From: a virus
IMG/VR virus record: IMGVR_UViG_3300011443_000005
Length of the DNA: 49,419 nucleotides
Strand: one strand, 5' to 3'
The stretch's first letter is position 1. Every line of letters starts with the position of its first letter. A model generated the notes under the pieces. The model had not been told where the DNA came from. It ran no database searches and was given only the letters and a program-made list of their open reading frames with translations. The translations under genes and the position numbers were made by a program. This document shows positions 34,101 through 46,827 of the stretch, one piece after another.

Positions 34101-34387
34101 AAATGTTAATAGCGGAACATAGTATCGCTTGGTATCTCACGCAACCAGACGGTGCAAGAGTGGTGATTCTAGAATTACCGACAAGACCAAAAAATCGTAC
34201 TGATGTTTCCGCCAAACTACCCCAACAGTTTTTTGATGACATCCACAGAGCAATGACAAGGACGTTAGGCTATGCTGAAGAACTCAAAGCAATCAAAGAC
34301 GCTATCGCAGACTGCGAAGACACAACTTCCATCGACCTTGGAAAAGGCTACACTTGTACCTGCAAGTGTCATAAACCTATCGGGTAA
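34094..34387 (+). CDS. Hypothetical protein (97 aa)
   Basis: 7-nt overlap with the nuclease stop. C-terminal CTCKCH. Confidence 0.5.
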   Translation: MLEMLIAEHSIAWYLTQPDGARVVILELPTRPKNRTDVSAKLPQQFFDDIHRAMTRTLGYAEELKAIKDAIADCEDTTSIDLGKGYTCTCKCHKPIG

Positions 34388-36512
34388 ACCCACAATCCTT
34401 TGCTTCGGTGAGACTCCAGGAATAGAGGATGTCCAGGAGGGACAAGCATTCGCTGGACGAGCAGGGAAGCTGCTTCGGAAACTCATCACCCTGCACCTGC
34501 CCCATTGCCGTGTTGTCCTCGACAACGTGTGTCCCGAAGTCCTGGCCGGGGGACATGGCAAACCCAACGCGGATATTCTCAAGAAGTACAAAGCCTACAG
34601 AGAAGAATCCGTAACCACTTGGCAACCCTCTGTGATTGTCCTGGTTGGGGCTTACGCGATGAACACAGCGGGTCTGCGGGGTACTGCTGGAATTGTTCGC
34701 CGAAATGCAACCACCGTACTTTACCACGGCAGACCGGCGGTGCTTTCTGTTCATCCAGCCTATGTGCTCCGCAATCCAGCGGAAATCAAACTACTTCGTA
34801 GAGTTTTTGAAATCGTGGAGGCGGAATTAAGAGGCGGAAAGGAAGTCCAAGCTCCCCGATCACGCAATGGGCTGACCTTGAATATTTCAGCAAGTTTAGA
34901 CCTGGAAACAGAAGGACTGAACCCAAGGGGGGGACGAATACTTACTGCTGCAATGAGTAGTAAGAAGCAAACAACTTGGATAGCTGCACCAACACTAGAT
35001 ACTATACAACTTTCTCCTAAACCCGTTATCTTCCACAACGGCAAGTTTGATATGGCTTGGTTGCAGACACACGGTTTTCAATTGCCCGCAAGTGTGGAAG
35101 ATACCCTTATCATAGCTTGGCTAATTGACGAGAATGATAAGAAAGACCTAGGTACACTTGCACAACGATACTTAGGTGTTCCCGCGTGGTGGCTGGACAT
35201 CGATCTGAAACACACAACTGAATTACCTACAGAAGTATTAGGTAAGTATAATGCTCTTGATGCACACTATACTTACCAACTGCGGAATAAACTTTGGCCG
35301 GAACTTACCAAACAACAACAACAGCTTTGTACTGACGTTCTCTTCCCCATGACAAAGCTTTTGGCAGAGATGGAATGCCGGGGGTTCAAAGTTGACGGCA
35401 CAGTATTTGAGAAAATTTGTACTAACAACCAGAAGTTAATAAAGCAGCAGGAAAAGAAACTCCGATCCAAGTACGGAGAAGAAATTAACTTTCGTTCAAC
35501 TACCGATTTGAAAGAGTTGGTCTATGGCAAACTCGATTATAAAGTGGGTGGACTAACCAAGGCCAAACAACCCGCTGTTGACGCTGACACATTGAGAAAG
35601 ATTTCTCCCAAACTCGCGGACTTGGCCGATTACCGTTGGCAATTGTGGTTTGAGTCCAATGTAGCTAAAGGTTGGGCGAAGCGAATTACCTCTCAAGGTT
35701 TTTTGCACACGAATTACAACTTTGGTCATGTTGTTACGGGTCGGTTAAGTTCGTCCAATCCGAACATGCAAAATGTGGATCGGGATGGGGTTCAACGTCT
35801 TTGCCTTGTTTCTCGGTTTCCTCGTGGGAAGATTATTCAATACGATTACAAAGCCCACGAGTACCGGATTAAGGCTGCCGAAGCAGGAGAGACAAAGCTT
35901 CTTAAACAACTATCCGATTCGTCCTTTGACCCACACGAGGAAACACGAACGTTGCTCCGTACCAAGTATGAGATTGTTGTAGATAGGCCGAGAGCAAAAA
36001 ATGTGAACTTCTCCGTAATCTACGGAATTAGCCCTCACGGTTTGTTCGGAAAGTATGAAATACCAATTAAAGATGGGCAGTTAATTATACCTGCTTGGTA
36101 TAAACTCTACCCAAGAATCAAGGCACACAATGATTTAATTCTGAAAAACTATGAAGAGAAACGAGAGGTTGAGTCGATATTTGGTTGGAAGAGAAGATTC
36201 AAACCTGTTGAGTTGGTAGATTTGGGAAGTCGCAAGTTTGATGCACACCAGCGGAATCAAGCATTGAACTTTGGAACACAGAACGCAGCAGTAGTGATCT
36301 GCTACATGGGAATGTTAGCACTTGATCGCTGGCTGACAAGACACCGAATGAAGAGTATCATTATCCACCAGATACACGACTCTGTTGTGGTAGACGCACA
36401 CCCGAAAGAAGTAAAGGCCCTGGAAAGAGAAGTTCCAGAAGTGTTGACAAATCTGAAACTACCAATGAGGATTCCTTTAGCTGTGGAGGCTAAAGTCGGG
36501 GACACCCTGTAG
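34272..36512 (+). CDS. polA: Family-A DNA polymerase with 3'-5' exonuclease and an N-terminal UDG-like (family 4/5-type) domain
   Basis: UDG motifs GETPGIED..G.AFAGRAGKLL and SVHPAYVLR. Exo motifs LDLETEGL, HNGKFD, YNALDAHY. Pol motifs DYKAHEYR, RAKNVNFSVIYG, IHQIHDSVVVD. The true start may be downstream of 34272 (116-nt overlap with the previous ORF). Confidence 0.9.
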   Translation: MLKNSKQSKTLSQTAKTQLPSTLEKATLVPASVINLSGKPTILCFGETPGIEDVQEGQAFAGRAGKLLRKLITLHLPHCRVVLDNVCPEVLAGGHGKPNADILKKYKAYREESVTTWQPSVIVLVGAYAMNTAGLRGTAGIVRRNATTVLYHGRPAVLSVHPAYVLRNPAEIKLLRRVFEIVEAELRGGKEVQAPRSRNGLTLNISASLDLETEGLNPRGGRILTAAMSSKKQTTWIAAPTLDTIQLSPKPVIFHNGKFDMAWLQTHGFQLPASVEDTLIIAWLIDENDKKDLGTLAQRYLGVPAWWLDIDLKHTTELPTEVLGKYNALDAHYTYQLRNKLWPELTKQQQQLCTDVLFPMTKLLAEMECRGFKVDGTVFEKICTNNQKLIKQQEKKLRSKYGEEINFRSTTDLKELVYGKLDYKVGGLTKAKQPAVDADTLRKISPKLADLADYRWQLWFESNVAKGWAKRITSQGFLHTNYNFGHVVTGRLSSSNPNMQNVDRDGVQRLCLVSRFPRGKIIQYDYKAHEYRIKAAEAGETKLLKQLSDSSFDPHEETRTLLRTKYEIVVDRPRAKNVNFSVIYGISPHGLFGKYEIPIKDGQLIIPAWYKLYPRIKAHNDLILKNYEEKREVESIFGWKRRFKPVELVDLGSRKFDAHQRNQALNFGTQNAAVVICYMGMLALDRWLTRHRMKSIIIHQIHDSVVVDAHPKEVKALEREVPEVLTNLKLPMRIPLAVEAKVGDTL

Positions 36513-42903: not shown

Positions 42904-43433
42904 CAATGCAAGCACAAAACATTCCCGCGATTGATTGGGGTAACTCCTTGATTTTCCGTAAATCAGGAGCCATTGCAGCATACACACCAAAGAATCAAAC
43001 TTTGGTGGAATACCCCGGACCTGAATTCCGACACCCAAGGGTGGGACCAACGTATGAACAACAGAACAATGAGATTGTCTGGTATCTACGTTGGCCGGGG
43101 TTTGATCCCTTTACCGGAGAAGCATTCCAGGATTCATATCCTGCTCTCATCTGTTCTGGTATCGGAGAACTGTCTGGGCCGCATGTCTTTGAAGGTGTTC
43201 AAAATGCAGGAGAACTAATCTCCATGAGCAACATTCCTTTTTCTGCGGCTGAGTTTCTCCCTCTCACACCGGAGAAGCGAAGGGTTGGAATGATTATCAG
43301 CGTAACCCCGGCTATGTGGGCAACCAAGGACGACATTCTTAACAATCGTTGGAACACTATGCGGGTTCCAATTATGGGTGCTGTGGGTCAACAGAACGTA
43401 TTGAGTATCACCGTTGGGCGATACACTGTCTAG
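42900..43433 (+). CDS. Hypothetical protein (177 aa from ATG 42900)
   Basis: ATGA overlap with the upstream stop. The track ORF starts at 42882. Confidence 0.6.
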   Translation: MTMQAQNIPAIDWGNSLIFRKSGAIAAYTPKNQTLVEYPGPEFRHPRVGPTYEQQNNEIVWYLRWPGFDPFTGEAFQDSYPALICSGIGELSGPHVFEGVQNAGELISMSNIPFSAAEFLPLTPEKRRVGMIISVTPAMWATKDDILNNRWNTMRVPIMGAVGQQNVLSITVGRYTV

Positions 43434-43447
43434 AAAAGGAATAGGGA

Positions 43448-43651
43448 ATGCTGGTACTATCACGGAAGGAACACGAGGAGATTAAAATTGGTGATGACAT
43501 TACTGTTTCCGTTTTGGAAATTCGAGGAGACAAGGTCAGAATTGGCGTTACCGCACCTCCAGATGTCTTGGTAGACCGTAAAGAAATTCGGACACGCAAA
43601 GAAAAGGAAAAGCAGAATGAAGATGTGGAAAATCTTCCTACTGATGGTTAG
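43448..43651 (+). CDS. csrA: CsrA/RsmA-family RNA-binding translational regulator (67 aa)
   Basis: MLVLSRKEHEEIKIGDDITVSVLEIRGDKVRIGVTAPPDVLVDRKEI aligns along its length with the canonical MLILTRR.GE...IGD.V.V.VL...G..VRIG..AP..V.V.R.EI. Confidence 0.85.
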   Translation: MLVLSRKEHEEIKIGDDITVSVLEIRGDKVRIGVTAPPDVLVDRKEIRTRKEKEKQNEDVENLPTDG

Positions 43652-43967
43652 TCTGTTTGGTATCGGTGTTGCTGGCTGTGCATCTGCTGCCAAGTTCACG
43701 CCGGAACAACAGCAGAGTATACAGGCTGTGGCGGGTATCCTGGTAAAGGTTGCTCAGGAAACCAATACTCATGCTGTTGCTCGTATTCGTCTAGTTCCGG
43801 CTGAGTTTTATGCGAAGCAATCCTTCGGAATGTCTGGGATTGAGGCAGAGCTATACCTCTCTGCCAATCCCGCAGATCAGGATTCTCTGGTTACCAGCAC
43901 ACCTATGATGGTTGTCCAGACCAGTAAGGGACCAGCAGTTGTGCCTGTCCCCAAGGAGGAACCTTGA
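43617..43967 (+). CDS. Lipoprotein (116 aa)
   Basis: Signal peptide with lipobox VAGC (MKMWKIFLLMVSLFGIGVAGC). Overlaps the csrA 3' end by 35 nt. Confidence 0.6.
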   Translation: MKMWKIFLLMVSLFGIGVAGCASAAKFTPEQQQSIQAVAGILVKVAQETNTHAVARIRLVPAEFYAKQSFGMSGIEAELYLSANPADQDSLVTSTPMMVVQTSKGPAVVPVPKEEP

Positions 43968-44272
43968 ACGTAGAACCCATTGGAAATAAGATTTTCGTAG
44001 AACGTGAAGAAGCTCAGTCTGTTACTGAGGGCGGTATTCATCTGCCAGAGAAAGCCAAAGAGCTTCCTTGTCGTGGGGAAGTGCTGGCTGTCGGTCCCGG
44101 ACAACTGATGGAGAGTGGAAGCCGTCACATTCTTCAAATTCAAAAAGGGAACAAAGTACTCTTCCCCAGCTACGCTGGGACGGAAGTAACCCTCAGCGGT
44201 ACGTTGAACACTCCGGGAGAGAGAAAATATCTCATCATGGATGAAGCAGATGTATTGTGTATTCTGCGATAG
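43964..44272 (+). CDS. groES: GroES/Cpn10 co-chaperonin homologue (102 aa)
   Basis: PIGNKIFVEREEAQSVTEGGIHLPEKAKE.P.RGEVLAVGPG...KGNKVLFPSYAGTEV...YLIMDEADVL follows the GroES pattern including the mobile loop. TTG start overlaps the upstream stop. Confidence 0.85.
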   Translation: MNVEPIGNKIFVEREEAQSVTEGGIHLPEKAKELPCRGEVLAVGPGQLMESGSRHILQIQKGNKVLFPSYAGTEVTLSGTLNTPGERKYLIMDEADVLCILR

Positions 44273-44307
44273 TAGTTTGTCGTCAAGTACGAGCGACACC
44301 TTGCTCT

Positions 44308-44502
44308 ATGGCGCCTCACGTACCCTGGCAGGTATACGCGCGGGGCGGAGTGGTGTGGCAGTTCGGAGAGACGAACATTTACGGAGATGTCCTGAACTAT
44401 TTTGTGAGGCGCCGTAGTAACACGCGAGCGCCGCAACGGTTGCGACACCTGCGAGCCGACGCCGGTGATACGGTCCTGATTGTCTTCGGACTATACAGTT
44501 GA
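44308..44502 (+). CDS. Doubtful small ORF (64 aa) in the GC-rich island
   Basis: ATG without an SD. It contains hairpin copy 1. The region may instead be non-coding RNA. Confidence 0.3.
   Translation: MAPHVPWQVYARGGVVWQFGETNIYGDVLNYFVRRRSNTRAPQRLRHLRADAGDTVLIVFGLYS
44345..44376 (+). other. Conserved element copy 1: GCGGAGTGGTGTGGCA plus hairpin GTTCG-GAGAGA-CGAAC
   Basis: Aligned by eye with 44522..44553 (13/16 identical 5' bases, identical loop, compensatory stem changes). Confidence 0.5.
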
Positions 44503-44521
44503 CTCCGATCCTGGGACAGCG

Positions 44522-44553
44522 GCGAAGTGGTGTGACGGCCGGGAGAGACCGGC
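44522..44553 (+). other. Conserved element copy 2: GCGAAGTGGTGTGACG plus hairpin GCCGG-GAGAGA-CCGGC
   Basis: Ends 18 nt upstream of ATG 44572. See copy 1. Confidence 0.5.
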
Positions 44554-44571
44554 AAAAATTGAAAGGCGAAA

Positions 44572-44892
44572 ATGCAAACACACGAAGATCGTGATTTTGA
44601 CCGCAAACATTTTCTGGGCCGGTTAGAGGATCGTGCCGTGAAAATGCGGCAAGCTGGTCTGTCAAAGATCACCGGCGGCGCGCCGGACGAAGAGACGCTT
44701 GCCGAATGGCATGGGGTGAACGGGGTACACGTCAAGCGATTGCCGGAAGACGAACAGGGTATTTTGCGAATCTCCGTTGGCGGCGGAATTCAAGAGATCG
44801 ATGTGAACTACCTGGTATTTCGCGGCGATCCACACAAGTGTATGTACTTGTTGCGGGCGGCGTTGGCGGCGATGGAAGAAAAGCTGCCATAA
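44572..44892 (+). CDS. Hypothetical protein (106 aa) in the GC-rich island
   Basis: AAAGG SD, balanced amino-acid composition, the best-looking ORF of the island. Confidence 0.55.
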   Translation: MQTHEDRDFDRKHFLGRLEDRAVKMRQAGLSKITGGAPDEETLAEWHGVNGVHVKRLPEDEQGILRISVGGGIQEIDVNYLVFRGDPHKCMYLLRAALAAMEEKLP

Positions 44893-44900
44893 GTGCGTAA

Positions 44901-44979
44901 GCCCCGTCGGCGTGGTGGGACACGTACCCGGCACCACAAACAGGTGCCCGGCATTGCGGTTCGAATCCGGCACGGGGCA
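44901..44979 (+). ncRNA. tRNA-like element (non-canonical; likely not a standard decoding tRNA)
   Basis: Perfect 7-bp acceptor stem (GCCCCGT/ACGGGGC), 4-bp D stem with a GG loop, canonical GGTTCGAATCC T-loop. But the anticodon arm is 9 bp with loop ACAAACA (no U33), the T stem has only 3 bp, and U8/A14 are absent. Confidence 0.4.
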
Positions 44980-45076
44980 ATACTAGATGCGTGCGTAAAA
45001 GCGCCCTCGTCAAGGCGAGAAGCCAGGGTGAGAGGGGCGGGACGACGTAAACCGCCCGGATGGATGAGAAGGTGCT

Positions 45077-45292
45077 ATGCTTCAGCCGTTCATCGCGAGG
45101 CTCTGCGTGGGCTGTGTCGAGAGGCTGAAGCTCCCCGTTTTCGTATCGGGCCAAGCGTTGCCAAAACCCGGAGACGCAATCCCCATCGTGTATCTAGCCA
45201 GGGTGGGCGAGCTAGAGTTCCAGGGGCGATGCCGGACGTGTAACGATTTGGTAGTGGTGCGAGGACCGGGTGTTCACAAATTCGATCAGTAA
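45077..45292 (+). CDS. Small zinc-ribbon protein (71 aa) in the GC-rich island
   Basis: GAGAAGG SD; CVGC...CRTC pairs. Confidence 0.45.
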   Translation: MLQPFIARLCVGCVERLKLPVFVSGQALPKPGDAIPIVYLARVGELEFQGRCRTCNDLVVVRGPGVHKFDQ

Positions 45293-45310
45293 GCTGCTAA
45301 GAAGTTGACC

Positions 45311-45643
45311 ATGGCGAATAAAACAACAAAATCCATTTGGACTAGAGAAAGAAAGGAAATGCTCCAGAGACTTCTGCGAGGGGAAGACCTTTGGTGGCCG
45401 GGACCGGATCGGGAACCCGCAAGAGGAAAAAGGCTTGACCTTGTCATGGCTGTCGAGGAAGTCTTTCCGGGGAACGGGGACTTCGCTGTAAGTCAACGGG
45501 AACAAGCTTGGGCGGAATTGCGGATAACCGCAAAAATAACCGGCTCACTTTCCAAGTGGCAAGACTCAGTAGGGTATAAGGATGTAATGAAAGCAATCGA
45601 AGACCTTAGCCCCGATTTGCTAGAAAGGACTCCAAGAGATTGA
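45311..45643 (+). CDS. Hypothetical protein (110 aa from ATG 45311)
   Basis: First ORF after the return to low G+C. The track start is TTG 45305. Confidence 0.55.
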   Translation: MANKTTKSIWTRERKEMLQRLLRGEDLWWPGPDREPARGKRLDLVMAVEEVFPGNGDFAVSQREQAWAELRITAKITGSLSKWQDSVGYKDVMKAIEDLSPDLLERTPRD

Positions 45644-45879
45644 AAAAACTATTATCACTTTGTCTCTTGTTAATTGGTTGTAGAGCAACCACAAACACCA
45701 CAGCTACCGTACACACTAGTATTGGCTGGATACCCGTACACTCTACCTGTCAAAAGTGTCCAGGGTGTGGGAACACAGAACTTTCCAGAGACTATGACGC
45801 GGGCAGTAAACAAACTGAAGTATACTGTAATAGGTGTGATAGTTTCTATTGTGTCATAGAGCCGGGAAAACAAAAGTGA
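45640..45879 (+). CDS. Small lipoprotein with zinc-ribbon cysteines (79 aa)
   Basis: MKKLLSLCLLLIGC lipobox, then CQKCPGC...CNRC. TTGA overlap with the upstream stop. Confidence 0.55.
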   Translation: MKKLLSLCLLLIGCRATTNTTATVHTSIGWIPVHSTCQKCPGCGNTELSRDYDAGSKQTEVYCNRCDSFYCVIEPGKQK

Positions 45880-45884
45880 ATAGA

Positions 45885-46265
45885 ATGAAGTGGTTCTTCT
45901 TTGGTTGGTTCTGTTGTGGCTTTCTTCTCTTTAGTACCTTCTTCCTTTCTTCCTGCATGTTGAAAGGTTATGAAAAAAGAAGTTCGGCCAATTATGAATT
46001 TAAACCCACAGAAACAAGTCCTGTAACTACAGACCAAGACCCAACCATGATTAGTTACGGGGATTTGAAATCCTATCTGAATAACAACGTAAGCCACAAT
46101 AACCCTTGGGCTGCTGTTGTCACTGGTGCTGTTACCGTACTAGTTCTAGGTGTGGTTATTGTTAAGAACAACTACCAACACCAGAAACCCCAGTATGAAG
46201 AGAAGAAACAAGCTATCGTTGAGCAAGTATTACAAGAACGACAGGAGCGGGATTTCAATGTCTAG
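45885..46265 (+). CDS. Candidate unimolecular spanin (126 aa from ATG 45885)
   Basis: N-terminal lipoprotein signal (lipobox LSSC) plus a C-terminal TM helix (PWAAVVTGAVTVLVLGVVIV) and a charged tail. This is the architecture described for u-spanins such as T1 gp11. Confidence 0.45.
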   Translation: MKWFFFGWFCCGFLLFSTFFLSSCMLKGYEKRSSANYEFKPTETSPVTTDQDPTMISYGDLKSYLNNNVSHNNPWAAVVTGAVTVLVLGVVIVKNNYQHQKPQYEEKKQAIVEQVLQERQERDFNV

Positions 46266-46491
46266 TCCAATAATTGAGCACACTTGTATTAAGTACACTT
46301 GTATTACTTGTGGTAAAAACAAGGAAACAATGTTAGGAATCAGGGTTACTCTTAACGCATCAGGACAGTCTCTTCAGCACATAATTTTATTCGCTTGCTC
46401 TATGGAGTGCTCTGAGGCTTTCACAACAAAATGCTCTAAGACATTTTTAGAGTGGTCTGAGACAGCTTCTCAAAATACCGGGAAAGCATAA
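46258..46491 (+). CDS. Small zinc-ribbon protein (77 aa from ATG 46258), family member
   Basis: AGGAG SD. YTCITCGKNKETMLGIRVT...CSMECSEAF. The track ORF starts at 46150 inside the previous gene. Confidence 0.55.
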   Translation: MSSPIIEHTCIKYTCITCGKNKETMLGIRVTLNASGQSLQHIILFACSMECSEAFTTKCSKTFLEWSETASQNTGKA

Positions 46492-46827
46492 ATGAATACC
46501 TTCTATCTTCACGAAAACACACAACTTTCCGAAGCTCATCTTGGTTTTTGGACAAGACTCAGAATGAGAGGTTTTCTCTATAAGGAATTACAAAACTTCA
46601 ATAACCCCCGTTGGGTAGCTTTTCTCAAAGCTTGTGCAATATGGAGAAAAGAAACTTATGTATACTGGTTTGGCGTTTTAGATTTGCTGAAGCTTTCCGC
46701 AAAGAGAAGAGAAGAGTTTAGACAAGCTATCGAGAGCCAAACTGTTGCTGAAGCTGTTGTTCAATCCCCGAAGTTTCGGGCTTCATCCAAGTCTGGTAAT
46801 ACTCAGGAAGACGCTTCGGTTGAGTAA
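46492..46827 (+). CDS. Hypothetical protein (111 aa), last gene of the plus arm
   Basis: ATG directly follows the upstream TAA. Its 3' 101 nt overlap the convergent large gene. Confidence 0.55.
   Translation: MNTFYLHENTQLSEAHLGFWTRLRMRGFLYKELQNFNNPRWVAFLKACAIWRKETYVYWFGVLDLLKLSAKRREEFRQAIESQTVAEAVVQSPKFRASSKSGNTQEDASVE

Follow-up and report, generated by a model that had tools for sequence, protein, structure and literature searches.

The window analyzed here, that is, the whole stretch of 49,419 nucleotides of the virus record IMGVR_UViG_3300011443_000005, comes from an uncultured, lytic-type phage of freshwater sediment, which has a GC content of approximately 47% and encodes PolA, DnaB, a PD-(D/E)XK nuclease, and a gp32-like SSB. 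An island of approximately 1 kb lies between the groES gene of this phage and an orphan gene of the backbone (ORF112), and carries two copies of an RNA module, a conserved gene (ORF106), a tRNA look-alike, a leader, and a further small ORF, ORF71 (Table 1). The nearest relatives of this groES are found in cellular groES-groEL loci, at no more than 46% identity. No sister phages were found: ORF183 returned one poor match, ORF71 is an orphan, and ORF112 matched only itself, and was negative in both Pfam and PHROGs.

Table 1. Features of the island and its flanking genes (positions refer to the window).
Feature	Position	Strand	Evidence and remarks
groES (Cpn10), phage, left flank	43964..44272	+	Pfam PF00166, E 9.5e-25; GC3 0.44 (backbone)
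Whole island	44273..45304	+	groES stop to start of next backbone gene; 57.6% GC
RNA module, copy 1	44291..44376	+	Covariance model R1, 41.3 bits, E 2.5e-8; 5' box hairpin 44291-44306 (loop ACACC 44296-44300); core box 44349-44359 (GGUGU 44352-44356); GAGAGA-loop hairpin 44361-44376
Predicted 14-bp long-range stem round copy 1 core	44306-44319 with 44404-44417	+	Inverted repeat I2, 93% complementary
RNA module, copy 2	44440..44553	+	R1, 46.3 bits, E 1.7e-9 for 44508-44556; 5' box hairpin 44440-44454 (loop ACACC 44445-44449); core box 44526-44536; GAGAGA-loop hairpin 44538-44553
Segment common to GC-richer phage contig (L003, L004, L107)	about 44519..45071	+	blastn
ORF106, conserved phage protein family, function unassigned	44572..44892	+	39 homologues, E down to 5e-52
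Putative non-decoding tRNA look-alike	44901..44979	+	Conserved halves relative to L003; family frame
Conserved leader of about 70 nt	45001..45071	+	86.6% identical to L003, one 10-nt indel; ends at next start codon; hairpin 45035-45057 (fold)
ORF71, orphan small protein	45077..45292	+	Two CxxC pairs; GC1/GC2/GC3 0.65/0.40/0.68
ORF112, orphan backbone gene, right flank	45305..45643	+	GC3 0.47

The preliminary description of this locus proposed a sharp rise in G+C after groES, and the sliding GC profile bears this out, with 57.8% GC in 44280-45300 versus 46.6 ± 2.3% (sd) across the 1-kb windows outside (z 4.9). The island is the highest-GC 1-kb window in the 49.4-kb genome, the runner-up being 52.1%. 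The left edge is abrupt at the groES stop (41.7% GC in 44213-44272), and the right edge is located at approximately 45300, past which ORF112 has backbone-like third codon positions (GC3); the flanks have 48.2% GC at 43000-44272 and 42.2% at 45305-46700. The hand counts on which the proposal was based were accurate, with measured values of 66.7% for 44309-44371 (68% by hand), 55.0% for 44601-44660, 70.0% for 45001-45060, and 35.0% for 45301-45360, and the GAGAGA hairpins and the tRNA-like element had also been placed correctly.

The GC-richest pieces of the island are its non-coding parts (57.5% and 63.6%), and both ORFs are foreign at their third codon positions, with a GC3 of 0.60 in ORF106 (z 2.7) and 0.68 in ORF71 (z 3.9), compared with a background of 0.42 ± 0.065 from genes picked by a crude longest-ORF routine, the z score of ORF106 being moderate. 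Both of these ORFs had been singled out for their SD sequences and sensible composition; ORF106 is a real conserved gene, and ORF71 is coding-like in its three codon positions, but has no true homologue. The ORFs of the island that are GC artefacts had no match in Pfam or PHROGs.

The covariance model R1 recovers two significant copies of the RNA module from the whole window, both in the island, in tandem, and 152-177 nt apart, and the next match (11.8 bits) is a detached 5' box at 44437-44470. The proposed design is a hairpin with an ACACC loop, which would pair with a downstream GGUGU in an invariant core, followed by a 5-bp hairpin with a GAGAGA loop. Both copies have the core AGUGGUGUGRC followed by the 5-bp stem with the GAGAGA loop, together with an upstream ACACC-loop hairpin (consensus GCGACACCUGC) that is pairable with the core, across inserts of 42 nt in copy 1 and 72 nt in copy 2. 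Inserts of 20-85 nt or more between the 5' box and the core are found in approximately one-third of the members of the family. In copy 1, the segment enclosed by the long-range stem (44306..44417) folds at -50.4 kcal/mol with a z score of -3.1, as predicted from this single sequence.

An exact-pattern scan for the module matched at least 120 contigs of metagenomes, and the carriers come from marine, soil, and freshwater samples. The sequence hardly varies among more than 110 metagenomic contigs and the cultured Phaeobacter phage MD18 (MT270409), where the module is located between two tRNA-Leu genes. All three unconstrained stem positions are paired in 109 of the 112 distinct units listed (5.9 expected), with 35 stem variants, and 91% of the cells are paired overall, with a covariation score that was reached by none of 500 shuffles. 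The folding strand is fixed by 25 G·U versus two A·C pairs. The upstream ACACC is present in 92 of the 113 units listed, and the pseudoknot covaries in divergent copies, where ACGCC faces GGCGU and AAGCC faces GGCUU. Among the matches listed, the unit retains a GC content of approximately 0.60 in carrier contigs of 33-69% GC. A tRNA follows seven of the listed units at a distance of 4-7 nt, in all cases on the same strand and never on the opposite one, and a Shine-Dalgarno (SD) sequence and ORF start are found 13-51 nt downstream of 28 listed units. By these data, the pseudoknot module is a real and widespread RNA family that has not been catalogued. Rfam 15 had no match above the gathering threshold anywhere in the window, the 44200-45400 interval remained empty up to E 10, and none of 18 carrier loci matched a model where the module is located. 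When IMG/VR was scanned with exact patterns, whether of the module or of the 5' half of the tRNA-like element, nothing was recovered; looser patterns did match. A search of published papers for the literal motif strings returned only unrelated primers, and a keyword search found no description. An array of UG27 reverse-transcriptase ncRNAs, which have units of approximately 150 nt, was also considered in view of the spacing of the two copies, and was rejected given that there was no RT domain among the 30 ORFs scanned; this reading is also disfavoured by the fact that the UG27 RNAs have little primary-sequence conservation, unlike the module.

A number of known phage RNAs resemble the module in some respects. 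The HDV-like ribozymes cut at their own 5' end, and have a nested double pseudoknot fold. The theta ribozymes, which are HDV-like and found beside phage tRNAs, have been catalogued on the basis of cleavage no more than 5 nt to either side of the tRNA, and carry the J1/2, L4, and J4/2 motif elements (PMC10879173). As in these ribozymes and the spacers of phage tRNA arrays, the module is a small, conserved, folded RNA, co-oriented with the tRNA and only a few nucleotides from its end. Unlike the theta ribozymes, however, it lies 4-8 nt before the 5' end of the tRNA, consists of an H-type pseudoknot and a distinct hairpin, and is found ahead of ordinary ORFs as well. The HDV-family models of Rfam had no match in this window or in the 18 carrier loci, and the module does not appear to be an HDV-like or theta ribozyme, in either its fold or its position. 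The put RNA of HK022 is a short, folded leader RNA that is known only from a few lambdoid phages. The module resembles put and other leader RNAs in that it is a short, folded RNA heading phage transcription units, without an obvious dedicated protein, and can be multicopy, but it has no sequence or structural likeness to put, and spans contigs of very different composition and habitat.

In the tRNA look-alike, an acceptor stem of 7 bp, a D arm that is conserved, and a discriminator A are combined with a weakened T arm, and the anticodon arm, which in a tRNA has a 5-bp stem and a 7-nt loop with U33, is replaced by a 6-bp central hairpin whose loop has C at position 33. ARAGORN detected no tRNA or tmRNA genes in this window or in five related loci, and the element had no match to RF00005, even at E 10. 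The family frame consists of a 7-nt acceptor strand, CG, a D-arm box (GCGUGGUGGGANACG), a variable centre, a T arm with a UUCRAAU loop, and the complementary 7-mer. The island element follows this frame in 7/7 acceptor pairs, the exact D-arm box, the exact T loop, and 3/5 pairs of the T stem (10/12 in total). Scores of at least 11/12 were obtained in 26 of the 60 viral contigs with the D-arm box versus 8 of 12,000 control positions, and the family has 22 different acceptor stems, with 14-144 nt between the D-arm box and the T stem. The element thus appears to belong to an uncatalogued phage family with a swapped anticodon arm, which would be unable to decode. These look-alikes are found together with the pseudoknot module only occasionally (five weak matches in 36 loci). 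The YrlA-type Y RNAs (RF02553), which are tRNA mimics, have a similar frame of acceptor, D arm, and T arm with a non-tRNA central domain, but the central domain is a 6-bp hairpin here, and ranges from almost none to approximately 140 nt in the relatives; RF02553 had no match over 44200-45400, even at E 10, and no Ro/Rsr gene was found among the 30 ORFs scanned with Pfam.

ORF106 had no Pfam or PHROG match, and the central block of its family is invariant in alignment A2. Its relatives are found in phage early regions, beside RusA, NinG, methylase, and PDDEXK genes, mostly in contigs of 55-59% GC, and a search of 185,579 species genomes found it in a single small MAG contig. The gene has a GC content of approximately 55-57% in all seven loci, including one of 49% GC (L131), and a GC1 of 0.66. 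Its GC content of approximately 55% in every genome is a result of the amino acid composition, and, given this constancy, only the third codon positions are informative; GC3 is 0.50 in L131. The AF2 model, of medium confidence (pLDDT 70.7), has a helix, four strands, and a C-terminal helix. For residues 39-106, the PUR-alpha/PC4 ssDNA/RNA-binding folds were ranked top by both Foldseek and an independent all-against-all aligner, with scores within the noise (Foldseek E 0.39-1; Z 5.5, against a noise guide of 7-8 for the tool; rmsd 4.6 Å; identity 5-13%). The modelled order of four strands and a C-terminal helix fits that of the PC4/Whirly/PUR-alpha fold (for example, the T5 PC4 homologue 4bg7 and the Borrelia Pur-alpha 3nm7), a four-stranded antiparallel sheet packed by a C-terminal helix, but the match scores are at noise level and the model is of medium confidence. 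With a cutoff of E ≤0.001, Foldseek returned nothing from the PDB, and nothing useful emerged from the protein atlas.

Downstream, no relatives of the leader besides L003 were found, and its hairpin pattern gave a single chance match, in a coding region of 67% GC. The only true match of ORF71 in 1.8e9 representatives was itself, Pfam and PHROGs were negative, and a relationship with multihaem cytochromes or with the Por tail was rejected, the weak matches being Cys-motif noise. The + strand of 44273-45304 has no sigma-70-like promoter or intrinsic terminator by an E. coli-type consensus. The TTGACT at 44499-44504, which is common to L003, was rejected as a -35 box, given that no -10 follows it in either sequence.

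The segment from 44519 to approximately 45064/45071 is 77.7% identical to L003, L004, and L107 in blastn (593 columns, E 5e-137), and tblastx found nothing else in common between this phage and the L003 phage contig. This contig has an overall GC content of 56.7%, and its copy of the segment (57.9%) equals its own backbone (56.5%). The identity to L003 reaches 97% in the RNA module core, 91% in the 5' half and 100% in the 3' half of the tRNA-like element, between which the centre is replaced, and 86.5% in ORF106, so conservation is higher in the RNA elements than in the gene, in which the differences at the three codon positions number 12/5/25. The segment starts at an RNA module core and ends at a start codon. 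The comparison directly shows that approximately 44519-45064 has been exchanged between phages, and the composition suggests that the transfer ran from the GC-richer ones. The left 240 nt (44273-44518) and ORF71 may also be foreign in origin, the RNA module being the only part of them with relatives. A blastn search of the island against 50,697 phage records yielded no match.

The proposal of an acquisition from a GC-richer genome is thus upheld for at least this segment, in addition to the foreign composition of the whole, and the RNA-based content that had been suspected is also present. The suggestion that the acquisition was recent fares less well, given that the nearest relative differs at 22% of the aligned positions, and there is no clear AT-ward drift in the substitutions of this phage's copy (19 vs 16); the unameliorated GC3 is the sole argument for relative youth. 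The elevation of the G+C has two independent causes, the sequence-constrained RNA modules and the foreign codon usage of both ORFs. Approximately half of the excess GC does not reflect a donor, but is the product of the constrained RNA modules, which maintain their composition in contigs across the whole range of GC content.

The compositional break is sharp and coincides with gene boundaries, as would be expected if a fragment of a GC-richer genome had been misjoined into the phage contig, but the probability of such a chimera is negligible. The left junction is bridged by contig pieces (44217-44395 and 44269-44424) from four other sediment runs, at no less than 99% identity, and the right junction is crossed by a Logan contig that is 100% identical over 44602-46451. 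Four DNA sequencing runs revealed no joints, loose ends, variants, or island-less form, the uncovered bins being uninformative at their depth. Captured host DNA or the remnant of an att site, with the tRNA-like element as the 3' part of a host tRNA gene, is also very improbable. The 3' ends of tRNAs are common integration cores, and the T loop of the element is indeed canonical and its 7-bp acceptor stem fully paired, but its 5' acceptor strand and D arm are also conserved, with replacement confined to the middle, whereas an att core would show the reverse pattern. In addition, at least 26 viral contigs have this frame, with acceptor stems that differ, and Pfam revealed no integrase, recombinase, or RT domain among the 30 window ORFs scanned. 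The single MAG contig with ORF106, together with the location of its relatives in phage early regions, also argues against the host fragment that had been envisaged as one possible donor.

Somewhat less improbable, albeit still unlikely, is that there was no transfer, and that the island is an old resident in which the G+C is kept high by the RNA structure and amino acid make-up. This would account for the composition of the RNA modules, which is approximately 60% GC anywhere, the narrow range of ORF106 across its seven loci, and the fact that the non-coding parts are the richest pieces. The third codon positions are free of both constraints, however, and are nevertheless well above the background in both ORFs, while the GC3 of ORF106 has settled at 0.50 in the 49%-GC locus. 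The 550-bp segment is also 78% identical to a phage with which no other gene is shared. A slightly better, although doubtful, alternative is that of a single RNA-protein unit that moves whole, in which ORF106, as a possible binder of single-stranded nucleic acids, works with the flanking RNAs, for example in a tRNA-related counter-defence or RNA protection. The module core, ORF106, tRNA look-alike, and 3' leader are indeed found together in both this phage and L003, the RNA parts are the more conserved, and the PUR-alpha/PC4 folds come first in two aligners. Four distant ORF106 loci (L001, L005, L006, and L008) lack both RNA elements, however, and the module is found in more than 100 contigs, and the look-alike in at least 26, all without ORF106, while the fold matches are weak (Foldseek E 0.4; Z below the noise guide).

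The island is probably a composite accessory cassette from the gene pool of GC-richer phages, so far unameliorated. The cassette would comprise five separable parts, each distributed separately elsewhere: the tandem RNA modules, ORF106, the tRNA look-alike, the leader, and ORF71. As no transcription signals were detected within the island, it would be read through from the rightward early operon (csrA, a lipoprotein gene, and groES), and the modules may act in cis on this transcript as leader, processing, or punctuation elements; elsewhere, they are followed either by a tRNA 5' end at 4-8 nt or by a start codon at 13-51 nt. Downstream of ORF106, the tRNA look-alike would provide either a site for RNase P/RNase Z-type cleavage or protection of the 3' end. 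Being near-identical between unrelated phages, the modules may also represent ready-made homology patches for cassette swapping, which would explain why the shared segment starts at a module core and ends at a start codon.

Morons are reportedly found in lambdoid and other tailed phages, and the preliminary description had suggested one here. The resemblance holds for an extra block between backbone genes, with deviant composition, a homologue in an unrelated phage, and dispensable-looking content. The island does not appear to be a classical moron, with its own transcription, given that an E. coli-type scan of its + strand revealed neither a promoter-like nor a terminator-like site, and it also differs in its large share of structured RNA and its make-up as a mosaic of independent modules.

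The formation of a GC island by horizontal exchange is ordinary in phage genomics, but the RNA-rich make-up of this one is unusual, given that more than 40% of it belongs to two structured-RNA families that are absent from Rfam 15. The peaks of GC in phage genomes can thus stem from constrained RNA modules, and not only from a donor, so the detection of transfer based on GC content should use the third codon positions. The cassette represents a clean natural experiment, in which the backbones of two unrelated phages contain one RNA-gene-RNA arrangement, delimited by the RNA modules. The near letter-for-letter conservation of the module, with freely covarying stems, is usual in ribozymes or in RNAs docking on universal machinery, and the phage MD18, as a cultured carrier, makes the module bench-testable. 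More speculatively, and with only a modest chance of being correct, these elements may form part of an undescribed, portable system of RNA “punctuation” in the tailed phages, in which the module would be a new class of functional RNA, either a self-cleaving or processing ribozyme or a ligand of a universal machine such as the RNA polymerase, RNase P, or ribosome, with the anticodon-swapped look-alikes as its counterpart at the 3' side. In combination, the two would mark the cassette borders, set the transcript ends, and provide the homology for the swapping of small genes such as ORF106 between phages of very different G+C.

The island at 44280-45300 has a computed G+C content of 57.8%, against a mean of 46.6% (sd 2.3; z = 4.9) in the 1-kb windows outside it, and is the top 1-kb window for G+C in the 49.4-kb sequence, the second-best reaching 52.1%. 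The step runs from the groES stop codon (41.7% at 44213-44272) to the start of the right-flank gene, ORF112 (35% at 45301-45360; 42.2% over 45305-46700), so that the island is exactly the intergenic-plus-accessory block 44273-45304. The hand counts of the preliminary description were right within two points on recount, and the step is confirmed. A mis-join is ruled out by independent contigs bridging both junctions, the left being spanned by pieces from four other freshwater-sediment runs (identity of at least 99%), and the right by a Logan contig that is 100% identical across 44602-46451. The sequencing runs compared at the island showed neither a joint nor a form lacking it. As a GC island, it is ordinary.

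Parts of the island and the genes preceding it in the rightward early arm
Feature	Coordinates	Position
csrA	43448-43651	rightward early arm, upstream of the island
Lipoprotein gene		rightward early arm, between csrA and groES in the listed order
groES	43964-44272	rightward early arm, directly before the island
RNA module copy 1	44291-44376	
RNA module copy 2	44440-44553	
ORF106	44572-44892	
tRNA look-alike	44901-44979	
Conserved leader, ~70 nt	45001-45071	
ORF71	45077-45292	

The high G+C content has two causes, namely, foreign third codon positions and the composition of the RNA module. The GC3 of ORF106 (0.60) and ORF71 (0.68) exceeds that of the backbone ORFs (0.42±0.065), whereas the flanking genes are ordinary in this respect (groES, 0.44; ORF112, 0.47). 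The overall G+C of ORF106 is approximately 55% in all the carrier genomes because of its amino-acid make-up, while its GC3 follows the carrier elsewhere (0.50 in a 49%-GC contig, 0.53-0.66 in 55-59%-GC contigs), yet is 0.60 here, which indicates a copy so far unadjusted to its present genome. The GC-richest pieces of the island are its non-coding parts (57.5% and 63.6%) and, among the matches listed, the RNA module remains at ~60% GC in contigs spanning 33 to 69%; the non-coding composition says little about the donor. The remaining long ORFs have no Pfam or PHROGs match and are what GC-rich DNA gives in any frame, as had been pointed out in the preliminary description.

The closest homologue of ORF106, sharing 85% of its amino acids, is encoded by a 6.9-kb phage contig found three times (L003, L004, and L107), which aligns by blastn with 44519-45064 at 77.7% identity over 593 columns; no further similarity between the two genomes was recovered by tblastx. 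The shared segment has 57.9% GC in L003, close to its surroundings (56.5%; whole contig, 56.7%), and stands 11 points over the backbone in the window. It begins just upstream of the core of module copy 2 and extends to the start codon of the following gene, and the two phages have different genes there. Within it, the RNA elements are better kept (module core, 97% identity; look-alike halves, 91% and 100%) than the ORF106 gene (86.5%), in which the differences at codon positions 1/2/3 (12/5/25) indicate purifying selection on a real protein. The island is thus shown to be a composite of independently distributed modules, most of which has moved between unrelated phages. Near-identical RNA modules may act as recombination patches between phages, an idea consistent with where the shared segment starts and stops. 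The interpretation given in the preliminary description is supported in part, for an exchange with a GC-richer genome.

The RNA module combines a pseudoknot, with an ACACC loop and a GGUGU core box, and a 5-bp hairpin with a GAGAGA loop. A pattern that fixed the core box and loop, leaving the stem free, matched at least 120 metagenome contigs, of marine, freshwater, and soil origin. Among the matches listed, pairing is complete at the three unconstrained stem positions in 109 of 112 distinct units (5.9 expected), with 35 stem variants, and the excess of G·U (25) over A·C pairs (2) indicates that the given strand is the one that folds, i.e., RNA. An upstream ACACC, which can pair with the GGUGU of the core, is found in 92 of 113 units, mostly in a hairpin of 2-5 bp whose loop it forms (consensus GCGACACCUGC). 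Pairing in the three helices reaches 91% across 33 compact units, and none of 500 shuffles attained the observed covariation, while divergent copies recovered by a covariance model alter both sides of the pseudoknot jointly (ACGCC with GGCGU, AAGCC with GGCUU). Judged by sequence comparison, the module is an RNA fold under selection. The same model finds two significant copies in the window, both within the island. No Rfam 15 family matched the module in the window or the carrier loci, and an exact-string literature search for its motifs found no description. One metagenome contig (L097, 35-1398) carries four copies in 1.4 kb, and five others (L089, L108, L048, L062, and L113) carry two each, which indicates that tandem arrays like the present pair are common.

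The look-alike was rejected as a tRNA by ARAGORN and the Rfam tRNA model. Relative to L003, its acceptor strand, D arm, T loop, and 3' acceptor strand are conserved, and the middle is replaced (37 nt against 69 nt). The D-arm box is present in 60 IMG/VR contigs, 26 of which have a 7-mer before it and a 5-bp T arm plus the exact 7-mer complement 14-144 nt later, compared with 8 of 12,000 control positions. With 22 different acceptor stems sharing this frame, the pattern of pairing places the element in a family, in which the window copy has a weakened T stem (3/5 pairs). In contig L086, a look-alike of this family begins 5 nt past a module copy. The D-arm box (44912-44921) and the module core boxes (44350-44359 and 44527-44536) are identical but for one of their ten letters, which could reflect a shared partner, a common origin of both RNA families, or chance.

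ORF106 has 39 homologues and falls into no family of Pfam or PHROGs; the relatives occur in early regions of phages, where their neighbours are RusA, NinG, methyltransferase, and PD-(D/E)XK genes, and only one small MAG contig carries the gene among the species genomes searched. Both RNA elements are absent from the distant ORF106 loci, which makes the cassette a combination that is recent, in a relative sense, rather than an obligate unit. The AlphaFold model (pLDDT 70.7) predicts a helix, four strands, and a C-terminal helix, for which Foldseek and an independent aligner rank the PUR-alpha and PC4 single-strand-binding folds highest, with scores within noise, a likeness that may serve as a lead only. 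ORF71 has two CxxC pairs and is an orphan.

The window amounts to a complete phage-like genome, the products of which include a DnaB-type helicase, a PD-(D/E)XK nuclease, a gp32-like SSB, and a family-A DNA polymerase to which a UDG domain is fused. A Pfam scan of 30 ORFs revealed no integrase and no reverse transcriptase. In the polymerase (34272-36512), the uracil-DNA-glycosylase-superfamily domain is N-terminal and in the same reading frame (PF03167, E 3e-14). The genes closest in sequence to the phage groES are cellular copies adjoining groEL (identity of up to 46%), and no phage relative was found in the homologue search. The closest known kind to the island is the phage moron, from which it differs in being largely RNA and in having, on its + strand, no sigma-70-like promoter or intrinsic terminator detectable by the E. 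coli-type consensus, which may not be that of the host. Readings of the island RNA as YrlA, or as an HDV-like or theta ribozyme (by topology or model), were rejected, as was an att site.

Located close to the end of the rightward early arm, the island is probably read through from upstream, and would be expressed within the early rightward transcript. A TTGACT hexamer is conserved ~20 nt before the module core in the window (44499-44504) and L003 (4361-4366), amid differing letters and with no -10 box after it in either. A terminator-like run of seven Ts follows the look-alike in L003 (4866-4880) and is missing from the window, so transcript ends may differ between carriers. Right after module copy 1 (44383-44395), a GGAG precedes a two-codon mini-ORF (ATG, one codon, stop), where the letters resemble a candidate CsrA binding site (GGA in a short hairpin context); the phage's own csrA lies 900 nt upstream.

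Elsewhere, the module is co-oriented with the feature downstream. Among the matches listed, a tRNA starts 4-7 nt downstream in seven units, with no opposite-strand tRNA nearby in any, and a Shine-Dalgarno sequence and ORF start follow at 13-51 nt in 28. The pseudoknot modules may serve as cis-acting leaders or processing elements for the genes and tRNAs that follow them, a role that might involve self-cleavage, polymerase binding, or nuclease recruitment. The look-alike behind ORF106 would offer either a site for tRNA-type processing or protection of the 3' end. Phaeobacter phage MD18, which is in culture, has two tRNA-Leu genes separated by 80 nt (MT270409.1, 12,680-12,920); this spacer is taken up by a complete module, and the second gene begins ~8 nt after it, which makes this phage a tractable system for experiments on the module.
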